From an uncultured Methanosarcinales archaeon (GTDB lineage Archaea > Nanobdellota > Nanobdellia > Woesearchaeales > DSVV01): a DNA stretch of 64,000 nucleotides. A model generated the notes under the pieces. It was not told the origin of the DNA and did not search any database. It saw only the letters and a program-made list of their open reading frames with translations. Within the stretch, counting starts at the first letter, position 1. The number at the start of each line of letters is the position of its first letter. Below are positions 26,155 through 49,971 of this stretch, piece after piece. The position numbers and the translations under genes were made by a program. The stretch is from the NCBI GenBank assembly GCA_964385055.1, contig CAYLMH010000005.1, forward strand, positions 2,801 through 66,800, given 5' to 3'.

Positions 26155-27444
26155 TTAAAGCACAATCTCTAAATCATGTTTTGTGCAGGTTTGTATATCA
26201 TTCTGAAGAGCAAGAAGTGTTTCAGGGATCGCAAGGACTGCAATTTCTGCGACACATTTTTCTTTTTGCTGCGCATAAGCGTCTGCTTTCTCCTTATACG
26301 TTTTAAACATATAGGCAGCCTCATCATGTTGCTGTTTCGCGAAATCTGAAGCGCATCTTTTCTCAATTTCTTTCTGTTGCTGAACAAGAACATGATGTTC
26401 AGTGAGATACAAGCGAAGATAGTCTTCAGTAAAAAGAGCAAGTTCATTGGCTGTTTTCTCTTTTTTGTCATCTTTTATTTCAAGCGCGTCGGCAAGAAGC
26501 TGTTCACGAACAAGAGCCAAGACAGAAATAAGAGAGAAAGAAGTATCCTGCTCCAACGCTGCAAGAGGACTTTCAAGATAAGGCAAAAGAAGCTGTTCTT
26601 TTTCAGGCTGTAGTTTCATAAATTTACGAAGCGCTTTATCAAGCACAGAAAAGTGAGAACGAAGAATCTGAAGATGGGCATCTGTTTTTTTAGAAGCAAT
26701 TTCCTTTTCAAGAAGCGAATGAAGATAGTGTTGATAAGAAGAACTTTCCTCTACCTTCTTCCGTTTCTCTTCAGCCTGCGTCTCCAGTTCTTTAAAGTGC
26801 GCGTAATCTTCTTCTGCCTGTTTTTGTTCAGCGAGAAGCTTTTCCTTTTGGTTGATCTTTTGCTTCACAAGGTCGATTTGTTTTTTGATGTCCGTTATTG
26901 CTTCAATGCTTTGTTTGCTGAGGAGTTGCTGGAGTTGTTTGATTACTTCATCAAGATCCTTAATGTTCTTTGCAACAGCGTACGCTTCATTGGCAAAAAA
27001 GTGCTGGAGAACTGCGTATGGTTTCAATGTCGCTGCGTGATACCCTTCAATATCTTTAAAATAGAGGGAAGCAAGAAGTTTCATGTCAACGTAGTCAAGT
27101 TTTTCTTTTGTCGTAATCGCTGAGAGTTGCGCATGAAATTGACGTGAGCGCAGGATGTAAGAACTTTTGTTGCCTTTCATGATACCAAGTTCTCGAGCGC
27201 CAACATTTTTGTTGCGAAGCTCTGCATGTTCCAGGTTCGTGAGATTTGCGTCAAGAGCAAAGAGACAGTCATCTATTTTTTCAAGAAGAGGCTGCGCTGT
27301 TTCAGTCACGCTTTTCGCGTTCTGCAAAAGCCGCTGTTCAAGCCATGCATCGAGTTCAGAGAAAGGAACAGTATGTCTGGGAAGAATGACTTCAACTTCT
27401 TCCTGCGCAAAGAATTGTTTGATTTTTTGAATAAGCTGTCGCAT
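26155..27444 (-). CDS. Coiled-coil protein (hypothetical)
   Basis: 429 aa, Lys/Glu/Gln/Leu-rich helical sequence. Confidence 0.6.
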   Translation of the reverse strand: MRQLIQKIKQFFAQEEVEVILPRHTVPFSELDAWLEQRLLQNAKSVTETAQPLLEKIDDCLFALDANLTNLEHAELRNKNVGARELGIMKGNKSSYILRSRQFHAQLSAITTKEKLDYVDMKLLASLYFKDIEGYHAATLKPYAVLQHFFANEAYAVAKNIKDLDEVIKQLQQLLSKQSIEAITDIKKQIDLVKQKINQKEKLLAEQKQAEEDYAHFKELETQAEEKRKKVEESSSYQHYLHSLLEKEIASKKTDAHLQILRSHFSVLDKALRKFMKLQPEKEQLLLPYLESPLAALEQDTSFSLISVLALVREQLLADALEIKDDKKEKTANELALFTEDYLRLYLTEHHVLVQQQKEIEKRCASDFAKQQHDEAAYMFKTYKEKADAYAQQKEKCVAEIAVLAIPETLLALQNDIQTCTKHDLEIVL

Positions 27445-27538: not shown

Positions 27539-27823
27539 ATGAAATATGATCTTGAGCTTGAGAAAGCAATCGAAAAAATAAAGGAAACAAACGCAAAACT
27601 TGTTTGTATCCAGCTTCCTGATGGAATTAAACCAAAAGCGCAGGAAATCTGCGATACGCTGCAGAAAGAAACAGGCGCGACAATTCTTATTTGGCAGGGA
27701 AGCTGTTATGGCGCTTGTGATTGGCCGCTGGGAATTGATAAATTAGGTGTCGATCTTCTTATTGCGTGGGGACATTCTGTCTGGAAACACGATACGTTTG
27801 AAGGGATTGCAGTGGATGAGTAG
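27539..27823 (+). CDS. dph2: Diphthamide synthase Dph2, N-terminal fragment (domain 1 only)
   Basis: LVCIQLPDGIKPKAQEI ... GSCYGACD ... LIAWGHS matches the archaeal Dph2 N-terminus, including the first Fe-S Cys. It stops after 94 aa. Confidence 0.7.
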   Translation: MKYDLELEKAIEKIKETNAKLVCIQLPDGIKPKAQEICDTLQKETGATILIWQGSCYGACDWPLGIDKLGVDLLIAWGHSVWKHDTFEGIAVDE

Positions 27824-27837
27824 ATAGGTAGTTTATT

Positions 27838-28533
27838 ATGAGTCTCGAGGATATTCTCTGGAAAACAAAAGCAGTTATTACCACAGCAAAAGAAGATTTG
27901 TGGGATAGACCTGATGAATGGATAAGAAAGCAATATCTAAAGGTCGTAACAGAAGAAAGAGAAGTTTTTCATTATGCGAACATGTTTTTAGAGGGAGGCA
28001 TATATTTAGCAATGATTATTTCTGCACCTTACTATGCGGAGGCACTGAAATATGACCATTCTGCTTTAGTACATTCACACGTATTTGCAGTAAGTTCTAG
28101 CCCTCTTCTGATATTCGAACTCGTTGCAAATCGAATATGTAAACATAATGAACACAGGAGAAACTTCGCTACTCTTGATGAAAAAGAATCAAAATCAAAT
28201 GTTTATATCCCCAAATGGATTCAAAAGACAGAACAAGCAATACGATTTCCATATATAATTGCAACTCTTTTGTATTTTGGAGAACATATGGCTACAGAGA
28301 TCATTACTATTCCAGGAGTAGGCTATTCACTCGCAGGAATAAGTATGGCAGGAGGTATTGTATCCTCGATGTATCTCAAAGACAGAGATCCAAAACAATT
28401 CCAGAAAAGACCATTCTGGGAAAGGGGTTATGATTATGTAAAAGAAAGAGTAGAAGAAATGTTACCACAACCAACGCCTATCCCAATTCCTGTAAGAAGA
28501 TATGCTTCTCTTGAACCAGCTACTTCTTTGTAA
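27838..28533 (+). CDS. Membrane protein (hypothetical)
   Basis: Several hydrophobic segments. Confidence 0.55.
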   Translation: MSLEDILWKTKAVITTAKEDLWDRPDEWIRKQYLKVVTEEREVFHYANMFLEGGIYLAMIISAPYYAEALKYDHSALVHSHVFAVSSSPLLIFELVANRICKHNEHRRNFATLDEKESKSNVYIPKWIQKTEQAIRFPYIIATLLYFGEHMATEIITIPGVGYSLAGISMAGGIVSSMYLKDRDPKQFQKRPFWERGYDYVKERVEEMLPQPTPIPIPVRRYASLEPATSL

Positions 28534-28577
28534 TTTAGAGGGAAAAATTTAAATAGATTCTGACCTATTCTCTTTTT

Positions 28578-28811
28578 ATGACAAACGAAAGAATAGTAAT
28601 TAATCCAGATGTTTTATCTGGCAAACCAATCATCAAGGGAACGAGAATTTCTGTAGAATTCATTCTCGAGTTACTTTCTTCAGGAATGAGTATTGAGGAA
28701 ATTCTAAAAGAATATCCACATCTTACCAAGAAAGATATTCTTGCTGCATTAGAATATGCAACACAACGATTGAAGCATGAAGAAGTCTATTCTATTGAAG
28801 CAGTTGCATAA
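28578..28811 (+). CDS. DUF433-family antitoxin-like protein
   Basis: GKPIIKGTRISVEFILELLSSGMSIEEILKEYPHLTKKDILAALEYA is the typical DUF433 signature. Confidence 0.75.
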   Translation: MTNERIVINPDVLSGKPIIKGTRISVEFILELLSSGMSIEEILKEYPHLTKKDILAALEYATQRLKHEEVYSIEAVA

Positions 28812-28813
28812 TC

Positions 28814-29173
28814 ATGAAATTTCTCACGGATGAAAATATTGCACTCTCAGTATTGAAAGCACTTCGCAAGCAAGGACATAACATTAAAGATGTAAAAGAA
28901 GAGAAACTACAGGGTGCTGCTGACAAGGAACTTCTAAGAATTGCACTTGCTGAAGAATGCATTATCCTAACGCATGATAAAGACTTTGCAAATCTCATTA
29001 CACAGAAGAAAGTAAATGTACCGGGGGTTATTTTGCTTCGTTTTAGAAATCAGAATTCAAAATTTATCATACCTACTCTGCTGAGTGTGCTTCAATCAAA
29101 TCTTCACGAAAAATTCTCTGGAAATCTTGTTATCATCTCTGAAAACAATGTTGTCATCGAAAAACTAAAATAA
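28814..29173 (+). CDS. DUF5615 / Mut7-C PIN-like nuclease (toxin-like partner of DUF433)
   Basis: MKFLTDENI ... ILTHDKDFANL. The gene starts 2 nt after the DUF433 stop. Confidence 0.7.
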   Translation: MKFLTDENIALSVLKALRKQGHNIKDVKEEKLQGAADKELLRIALAEECIILTHDKDFANLITQKKVNVPGVILLRFRNQNSKFIIPTLLSVLQSNLHEKFSGNLVIISENNVVIEKLK

Positions 29174-47671: not shown

Positions 47672-48220
47672 TCACTGCAACTCTCGTTTCAGCGTCTTAT
47701 GCGCGCGGTTGATCGCTTTGAATTTCTCTGTATCGCCACCATCCATGTCAGGATGATTTTTCTTGGCAAGTTCCTTATATTTTGCGTTAATAATGTCCAT
47801 GTTCGTCTCAGTAGGATCAACGCCTAAAGTAATGCGTGCTTGTTTCCGTTCTTCTTCAACATCATCTTCTTCTGAAAAAGAGCTGAAAAATTCTTCAAGT
47901 GTTTTATGACCAGAAAGATACGCATTAACTTCAAGTTCAATAACTTTGAAAACAATAGAAAGATTCTCTACATATTTGTTCGCAATTTTGTAGCTGTAGT
48001 ATAAACGACGACCATCCATGTACCACGTCGCAGACGCGGGCGCGTTCTTGAAAGCGCTGACATCTTGTGGAATATCAATATCATCTTCTGTAAGGCCAAG
48101 TTTTTTAAGTGTCAAAATAATATTGTTTTTGTATTGCACTGCTCGCCTGTCATACGAATCACGAATAGTGGGAGTATTGATATCATATCCCTTAATTCTA
48201 ATTATTGCCATTGTTTTCAA
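47672..48220 (-). CDS. J-domain protein (C-terminal DnaJ domain, novel N-terminal domain)
   Basis: INAKYKELAKKNHPDMDGGDTEKFKAINRAHKTL contains the HPD tripeptide. Confidence 0.7.
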   Translation of the reverse strand: MKTMAIIRIKGYDINTPTIRDSYDRRAVQYKNNIILTLKKLGLTEDDIDIPQDVSAFKNAPASATWYMDGRRLYYSYKIANKYVENLSIVFKVIELEVNAYLSGHKTLEEFFSSFSEEDDVEEERKQARITLGVDPTETNMDIINAKYKELAKKNHPDMDGGDTEKFKAINRAHKTLKRELQ

Positions 48221-48885
48221 ACCATCTCAAAGACATCTTCCAAGTTTACCATTGGTTTGTCTACTTTATTTTTATCATCAATCCCAATGCGAGGGCATGC
48301 GCTATTCACCCAACACTGCACAAACGGAAAATTATTCATTTGTACAAAATCAACAGTGTTGGATAAGAGTAAATATACTTTCTTTCCTTTTGCTTCGCAT
48401 TTTTCTTTAAACAATAAACAGCGTTTCATAAACTGCTGTCCTGGTTTTGTCGAAATCAAAACGCCAATATTGTCTGCTTCAAGAAATTTCATGATCGAAA
48501 CTTTGTGCTGCCGAACAGCAAGATCAATATCCTTTCGATCAAAAAGCACCATCTGCTTGGTGTAAGGATTGTAACAAAAAATAGGTTTTTCATTCTTTAT
48601 TGCGATTGCCTGCGGATGAAAAACACCATCGCCAATATAGAGAAATGCTGGCGCAGGATAATCAAGATATTCACAGCCAAGAATTTGTCCAGCACGCTGT
48701 GTATGTTTGCCTTTCAAAAGATGGACTGTAATGCCTGCATCCTTTAATTGCTGCAAAACGCCCTCGATAGAATCAATAAATTGAATCGTTGTAAAGAGTC
48801 CAAGTTCTCTTGGAAGCTGTTTAATTTGTTCAGAAGAAAGTGCTATCTCCATTGCAACGTGTGCTTCGAGGAATAATGTCTTCAT
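48217..48885 (-). CDS. dph2: Diphthamide synthase Dph2, C-terminal fragment (domains 2-3)
   Basis: GQILGCEY, FLYIGDGVFHP, CYNPYT and NSACPRIGIDD carry the second and third Fe-S Cys. It lacks domain 1. Start chosen at ATG 48885; the ORF track starts at TTG 48951. Confidence 0.75.
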   Translation of the reverse strand: MKTLFLEAHVAMEIALSSEQIKQLPRELGLFTTIQFIDSIEGVLQQLKDAGITVHLLKGKHTQRAGQILGCEYLDYPAPAFLYIGDGVFHPQAIAIKNEKPIFCYNPYTKQMVLFDRKDIDLAVRQHKVSIMKFLEADNIGVLISTKPGQQFMKRCLLFKEKCEAKGKKVYLLLSNTVDFVQMNNFPFVQCWVNSACPRIGIDDKNKVDKPMVNLEDVFEMV

Positions 48886-48966
48886 AAAGGGGTAAAAACA
48901 GAGGTTGTCTTTTAAAGGTTTGCATGAGAGAAAGAGAGAAAGCTCATCCAAAAGGAATATAAGAAA

Positions 48967-49971
48967 TCATTCCCACAATTTTTCGTTTTCATTAAGATAG
49001 GTATACGCAGAAAAGACAGCAAGAACCCCTTCCGCGACACCAGTGATTGCCTGCTTAAAGCGAGTGTCACAAACATCACCTGCTGCGTAAAAGCCAGGAA
49101 CATTGGTTTGCGCGTCTCTGTCAATAGGAACTTCTCCTTTAGCGTTTAAAGTAACGCCAATTTTCTTTGCAAGGTCTGAAAGCGCGATGTGTCCTATTTC
49201 AATAAATAACGCATCAAGTTTAAATTCTTTTTTTCCATGATAGGCTTTGTCAAAGACAACACCAGTAATATATTTCTCTCCTTTGACTTCAACAACATTA
49301 GTCGTGCTGATAATTTCAATTTTCCCTTCTTTAATTTTCTTCTCAATACGAGTCATGTTGACGGGTTCTGGTCTGATTTTTTCTCCACGGTAAATAATAT
49401 ATACTTTTTTACCCCATTGGGTTAAGAGCAATGCTTCTTTCGCAGCAGAATCAGATCCGCCAACAACACCGATAATCTTTTCTTTGTAAAATGCACCATC
49501 GCAAAGCGCGCAGGTATGCACTCCTTTGCCAAAATAATTGTCTTCTCCAGGAACACCGAGTTTTCGTGGTTTTGTTCCTGTCGCAAGCAATACTGTTTTT
49601 GCTTTGAAAGAAGATCCATTTTTTGTGGTCACGGTGAAAATATGCTTCTTTTTGTCCTGCGCAAGATCATTGACCAGTCCATCTTCAACATCAATGTCAT
49701 ATTCTCGTGCGTGTTGTTCAATGTTATCTGCCAACTGCGGACCTGTCAATTTTTTGAAACCCGGATAATTTTCAACGTCATCTGTCAGCATAATGGTTCC
49801 GCCAGGAGTATCGCCAACAATTAATGTTTTGAGTTGCATTCTGCCTGCATACATCGCAGCGCCCCAGCCAGTCACTCCTGTTCCAATGATAAGAATATCG
49901 TAGAGTTGTTTTGGATTGCCTTTGCCGACCATGGAGACATTAAACAGGGTTTCGTTTATATATTTTGCCAC
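48967..49971 (-). CDS. trxB: Thioredoxin-disulfide reductase
   Basis: FAD motif IIGTGVTGWGAAMYAGR, redox-active CALCDG, NADPH motif VVGGSDSAAKEA and GFYAAGD. Confidence 0.9.
   Translation of the reverse strand: MAKYINETLFNVSMVGKGNPKQLYDILIIGTGVTGWGAAMYAGRMQLKTLIVGDTPGGTIMLTDDVENYPGFKKLTGPQLADNIEQHAREYDIDVEDGLVNDLAQDKKKHIFTVTTKNGSSFKAKTVLLATGTKPRKLGVPGEDNYFGKGVHTCALCDGAFYKEKIIGVVGGSDSAAKEALLLTQWGKKVYIIYRGEKIRPEPVNMTRIEKKIKEGKIEIISTTNVVEVKGEKYITGVVFDKAYHGKKEFKLDALFIEIGHIALSDLAKKIGVTLNAKGEVPIDRDAQTNVPGFYAAGDVCDTRFKQAITGVAEGVLAVFSAYTYLNENEKLWE

Follow-up and report, generated by a model that had tools for sequence, protein, structure and literature searches.

Diphthamide synthase Dph2 is encoded in the window (the whole stretch of 64,000 nucleotides analysed here) by two separate genes, dph2-N and dph2-C; the best joint explanation of the evidence, with a probability of about 0.9, is an old gene fission that left two independently transcribed genes whose products assemble non-covalently into one enzyme. 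Dph2, a non-canonical radical-SAM enzyme with a [4Fe-4S] cluster, carries out the first step in diphthamide synthesis, the transfer of the 3-amino-3-carboxypropyl group from SAM to a histidine residue of EF-2. The two open reading frames (ORFs) that an earlier note on this DNA had singled out are both present as it gave them, the motifs it quoted are found in both, and the codons of all three cluster cysteines are verified (Table 1). Each piece scores above the curated cut-off for PF01866 (Diphthamide_syn; 33.2 bits), and the two together carry the three conserved cysteines and, in structure models, the three-domain alpha/beta fold of Dph2. In place of the single polypeptide of ~330 aa there are two genes and, in the searches described below, no intact copy.

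Table 1. Coordinates of the dph2 pieces, their cluster cysteines, neighbouring features and related loci; positions without a contig label are those of the window.
Feature	Coordinates	Strand	Description
dph2-N	27539..27823	+	94 aa, TAG stop; N-terminal piece of Dph2
Cys60 codon of dph2-N	27716..27718	+	Motif YGACD, first [4Fe-4S] ligand; codon verified
dph2-C	48217..48885	-	222 aa, ATG at 48885, TGA stop; C-terminal piece of Dph2
Cys71 codon of dph2-C	48673..48675	-	Motif QILGCE, second cluster ligand; codon verified
Cys197 codon of dph2-C	48295..48297	-	Motif SACPRI, third cluster ligand; codon verified
Lysine/glutamate-rich ORF	26155-27444	-	429 aa
Segment missing in G001	27823-29159		~1.3 kb
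Membrane ORF	27838-28533		231 aa, multi-pass
DUF433 ORF	28578-28811
DUF5615/PIN-like ORF	28814-29173
J-domain ORF	47672-48220	-	182 aa
Thioredoxin-reductase-like gene	48967-49971
aEF-2, first part	C14:6-1490		Profile positions 4-498
aEF-2, second part	C59:5408-6124		Profile positions 483-718
PF01866 loci of genome G209	C1:995276-996160 and C1:741126-741671		Intact dph2 and split-type C piece, among three matches

The product of dph2-N corresponds to the N-terminal part of Dph2 only, with the first of the cysteines, as the earlier note had described it. A Pfam profile search matches it to positions 1-58 of PF01866 (E 4e-10, 40 bits), its alignment covers residues 7-84 of 6q2d and 6bxm, two solved structures of Dph2, and it ends 15 residues past the WGHS motif. 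Cys60 aligns with the GACD motif of solved Dph2 and is invariant among the 31 N pieces compared. The AF2 model (pLDDT 77.7) contains three helices and three strands followed by a tail that is disordered from residue 80; when this model is compared with the PDB by Foldseek, the top 15 matches are all Dph2 (E 9e-5, rmsd 1.7-2.6 A).

The C-terminal piece accounts for the remainder of the family profile (positions 63-286, E 4e-40, 138.6 bits) and its alignment with 6bxm and 6q2d spans residues 92/93-308/312 of these structures. Its start is assigned to the ATG, as previously proposed, because homologues all begin M-K-T-L-F; a 244-aa version that starts from a TTG at 48951, which a mechanical ORF call produces, has no homologue support and is rejected. 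The other two cluster cysteines are indeed here: Cys71 aligns with the LGC motif and Cys197 with the ACPR motif of solved Dph2, and both are invariant among the 32 C pieces compared. The AF2 model (pLDDT 91.7) shows four strands each in domains 2 and 3, while the first 17 residues of the piece, modelled alone, are unpaired and without regular structure. The top 15 Foldseek matches in the PDB are again all Dph2 (E 8e-17, TM 0.73-0.78), and among named records the closest to the C piece are groundwater MAGs of Candidatus Woesearchaeota, with 68% and 84% identity.

The two genes are on opposite strands and separated by 21,062 bases, in keeping with the ~20 kb estimated earlier. Their products are complementary and non-overlapping, as had been claimed: aligned at the junction with intact genes from the same class, they abut without gap or overlap, and opposite ...GHAPFTTVDFP-VLYLEARY... 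in the intact genes stand ...GHSVWKHDTFE(GIAVDE)stop from the N piece and MK-TLFLEAHV... from the C piece. The cluster ligands are divided one plus two between the polypeptides. The statement that domain 1 is encoded at the first locus and domains 2-3 at the second holds for most of domain 1, and for its end probably needs amendment; the AF2 models suggest that the break falls inside domain 1, between its third and fourth strands, and TLFLEA at the start of dph2-C would then be the fourth strand. The three Dph2 domains are repeats of one fold, and Zhang and colleagues reportedly described, in 2010, a four-stranded sheet in each of them; the placement of the break combines this four-stranded sheet with the strand counts in the models. 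With the break at this position and a strand supplied by the C piece, each protein would depend structurally on the other, which would explain their strict co-occurrence.

The same two pieces, with the same split point, are found in 41/41 relatives sampled from the same genus, family and order; the N match runs from profile position 1 to ~58 and the C match from ~62 to ~288. N pieces of relatives end 2-15 residues past WGHS and C pieces begin MKTLF(L/I)EAR; in intact proteins VLYLEA comes after GH, with a 7-residue loop between. In genomes from other families (G030, G031, G032, and G040, the last of which is a single closed contig), the pieces are adjacent on the same strand as two ORFs in different frames, with stop and start overlapping at the same break as in the dispersed form. 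This overlap is ordinary translational coupling and not a fused gene.

A six-frame search of the genome's own assembly (1.49 Mb, 73 contigs, 86.7% complete) matched these two pieces alone and no intact dph2, and the 98%-complete sister genome G001 likewise contains only the two pieces; the proposed split is real. G001, an independent assembly from the same genus, is collinear with the window through dph2-N to its stop, and through dph2-C as far as 37 nt upstream of the start of that gene. Comparisons within the genus give dN/dS values of 0.02-0.18 for dph2-N and 0.05-0.13 for dph2-C, and both pieces are under strong purifying selection.

Other components of the pathway are also encoded in the genome: dph5 (TIGR00522, 315 bits) on contig C31, dph6 (PF01902, 214 bits) on contig C63, and aEF-2, with the acceptor histidine motif HEDAIHRG, on contigs C14 and C59. 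The aEF-2 gene is cut over two contig ends (Table 1), and its two parts are the result of assembly fragmentation, not a split gene.

One alternative is that the two ORFs are decaying remnants of a rearranged dph2, with diphthamide synthesis either lost or carried out by an intact copy elsewhere. The incompleteness of the assembly (86.7%) leaves room for such a copy, some genomes of the order do contain an intact gene, and loss of dph2 occurs in the group, because four genomes of the class are without any dph2. Decay is nevertheless highly improbable and this reading is largely refuted: both ORFs are intact with dN/dS of 0.02-0.18, the three cysteines are invariant, the break point is identical in all 41 relatives, dph5, dph6 and a diphthamide-competent EF-2 are kept, and the nearly complete sister genome is without an intact copy. 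Another alternative is an assembly artefact, in which a chimeric join or inversion in the MAG would have parted the halves of one gene. The genome is a 73-contig draft, which would allow such an error, but the N stop and the C ATG stand at the same places in the independent same-genus assembly G001, and the same ends recur in dozens of other assemblies that include single-contig genomes such as G040; of the alternatives weighed here, an artefact has the lowest probability. On all the evidence together, decay and misassembly are very unlikely.

A further alternative accepts the two genes and supposes that their products are joined into one polypeptide, by trans-splicing of the mRNAs or by a split intein. 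Both mechanisms are known from Nanoarchaeum equitans for other split genes; its tRNA halves are trans-spliced and its DNA polymerase is joined by a split intein. In the dph2 pieces of this group, however, the N tail past GHS consists of only 2-15 non-conserved residues and the C piece is a Met followed directly by the next strand, and therefore there is no space for intein halves. Between the 3' region of dph2-N and the 5' leader of dph2-C the longest complementary stretch is 10 nt; it does not exceed chance, since 5.5% of shuffles reach this length, and it falls inside the next ORF. An Rfam search of the window gave zero matches, which counts against RNA trans-splicing, and in the relatives with adjacent pieces the ORFs overlap as ordinary coupled genes. 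Joining into one chain is less probable still than decay, though not as improbable as an assembly artefact.

Under the favoured reading, separate genes with non-covalent assembly, dph2-N would provide most of domain 1 and the ligand Cys60, and dph2-C would provide domains 2-3 and the ligands Cys71 and Cys197. The first residues of dph2-C (TLFLEA) are predicted from the models to complete the sheet of domain 1 as its fourth beta-strand; because the C piece would thereby supply the missing strand of domain 1, strand complementation may hold the two polypeptides together non-covalently, around a cluster and SAM pocket that they share. Since the archaeal enzyme is a homodimer, the assembly would by analogy probably be an (N.C)2 complex, and we infer that the two-piece Dph2 is enzymatically active. 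Inspection by eye places an A/T-rich TATA-like box ~25-35 nt upstream of the ATG of each gene, which fits separate short-leader transcripts for dph2-N and dph2-C.

A wider survey took in 301 genomes from the phylum, a sample that amounts in effect to one class, and matched PF01866 in 297. An intact gene of ~330 aa without internal stop is present in ~26 of the 301, mostly from other orders; within the order of the window it is found in G045, G104, G146, G209, and G318. In 6 genomes the match runs across a single stop and represents the adjacent split form, and most of those remaining have two separate PF01866 matches, some only one. The four genomes without a match (G051, G222, G271, and G280) are members of the class and 95-100% complete, and they may be cases of diphthamide-pathway loss. 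Such loss is described for Asgard archaea and Korarchaeota.

In a tree of 37 rows (28 split genes with N and C pieces concatenated, 6 intact in-class genes, and 3 PDB sequences), the split genes, all 28 of them, fall into a single clade with SH-aLRT support of 100 and a long stem, and all 6 intact in-class genes form a second clade with support of 99. The adjacent forms cluster together within the split clade, with modest support. This topology fits a single fission within the sampled diversity, and an order of events in which the pieces were adjacent first and dispersed later is plausible. Genome G209 has three PF01866 matches, which include an intact 330-aa dph2 as well as a split-type C piece (Table 1), and its intact gene clusters with those from other orders; this grouping suggests that there is a second gene lineage, acquired by transfer or descended from an old paralogue. 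These points can be combined into a fuller scenario, to which somewhat less than even odds are given and which the accessible papers do not put forward: one ancient fission in the domain-1 loop between strands 3 and 4, with the C piece donating the strand; an ancestral adjacent and a derived dispersed arrangement; and intact genes that belong to a separate lineage and are not reversals. If this tentative scenario is true, the C piece must donate its strand and the pieces would for that reason remain co-dependent after dispersal, and intact genes in the same class or order would be a retained paralogue or the result of transfer.

A split dph2 in DPANN archaea, Woesearchaeota included, is already published, and the supposition in the earlier note that dph2 was not among the described split genes does not hold. 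'Diphthamide synthase sub. DPH2' is listed as split in the nanoarchaeote Nst1 (Nst 222 / Nst 440) by Podar et al., 2013 (PMC3655853, Table 1). The accessible text of Narrowe et al., 2018 (PMC6143161) describes separate NTD and CTD Dph1/2 genes in several DPANN archaea, concatenates both pieces for phylogeny, and warns against treating the gene as a single-copy marker; that of Dombrowski et al., 2019 (PMC6349945) reports the split in Parvarchaeota, Pacearchaeota, Woesearchaeota, and Altiarchaeota. The implied novelty of the split fails because these three papers report it. The genes in the window, separate N and C genes in a DPANN genome with a split common to relatives, share the enzyme, the kind of lineage and the NTD/CTD division with the two-gene Dph1/2 in the accessible text of Narrowe et al. 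(2018) and are a further instance of it, with no essential difference. In Nst1, also a small symbiotic member of the DPANN archaea, dph2 is likewise encoded by two dispersed genes, although the lineage is a different one, the hot-spring Nanoarchaeota.

Intact archaeal Dph2 proteins (3LZC/3LZD from P. horikoshii, 6BXM from Ca. Methanoperedens, and 6Q2D from M. smithii with EF-2) have the same family assignment, fold and three cysteine ligands as the two pieces, which are 27-37% identical to them; the chemistry is presumably the same. The intact enzymes are single chains of ~330 aa that form homodimers, whereas the chain considered here would be broken once three strands of domain 1 are complete. 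The eukaryotic Dph1-Dph2 heterodimer is likewise made of two different polypeptides; these are full-length paralogues that arose by duplication, in contrast to the present pieces, which are one chain cut by fission.

The accessible text of Narrowe et al. (2018) and Dombrowski et al. (2019) does not say exactly where the chain is broken or where in the fold this falls, and contains neither the distinction between adjacent and dispersed states nor selection measures. A search of the accessible literature found nothing on how the break relates to the fold or on reconstituting a two-piece Dph2, and nothing usable on the domain boundaries of PhDph2. What the present analysis adds is incremental: it defines the exact junction and its probable position in domain 1, measures selection, distinguishes adjacent from dispersed states, and shows the split genes to be monophyletic. 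Because PF01866 serves as a single-copy marker, a gene in two pieces distorts estimates of completeness and contamination, a point also made in the accessible text of Narrowe et al., 2018 (PMC6143161). In annotation pipelines the N piece may be labelled as a fragment or as a pseudogene. The incremental points listed above offer a concrete hypothesis for reconstituting a two-piece Dph2 or for using it as a natural split-protein system.

Several neighbours of the two genes were considered as functional partners. Downstream of dph2-C, the J-domain ORF has its J domain (HPD motif; PF00226, E 6e-10) at the C-terminal end, preceded by a 125-aa part without family; a possible TTG start of this ORF overlaps the dph2-C stop, with an ATG 9 nt further on, and the genome has one further weak J-domain match, on contig C39. 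The ORF recalls the eukaryotic J-protein Dph4 but is rejected as an archaeal Dph4 analogue or conserved partner of dph2-C because, among ~30 C-piece loci, the linkage is found only in the genome of the window (G000) and in G001. The thioredoxin-reductase-like gene upstream of dph2-C is similarly rejected as an electron-supply partner; such a gene is close to dph2-C in one other MAG only, at a distance of ~1.85 kb.

Next to dph2-N, the lysine/glutamate-rich ORF is divergent from it, has no significant Pfam family and probably forms a coiled coil; it adjoins dph2-N in G001 too. The multi-pass membrane ORF on the other side has no Pfam match and is rejected as a conserved partner of dph2-N, being missing at that position even in G001. 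It lies within a segment of ~1.3 kb, directly 3' of the dph2-N stop, that is missing in this sister genome. The segment also holds the DUF433 and DUF5615/PIN-like pair, which resembles a toxin-antitoxin module, and it is probably a small accessory insertion.
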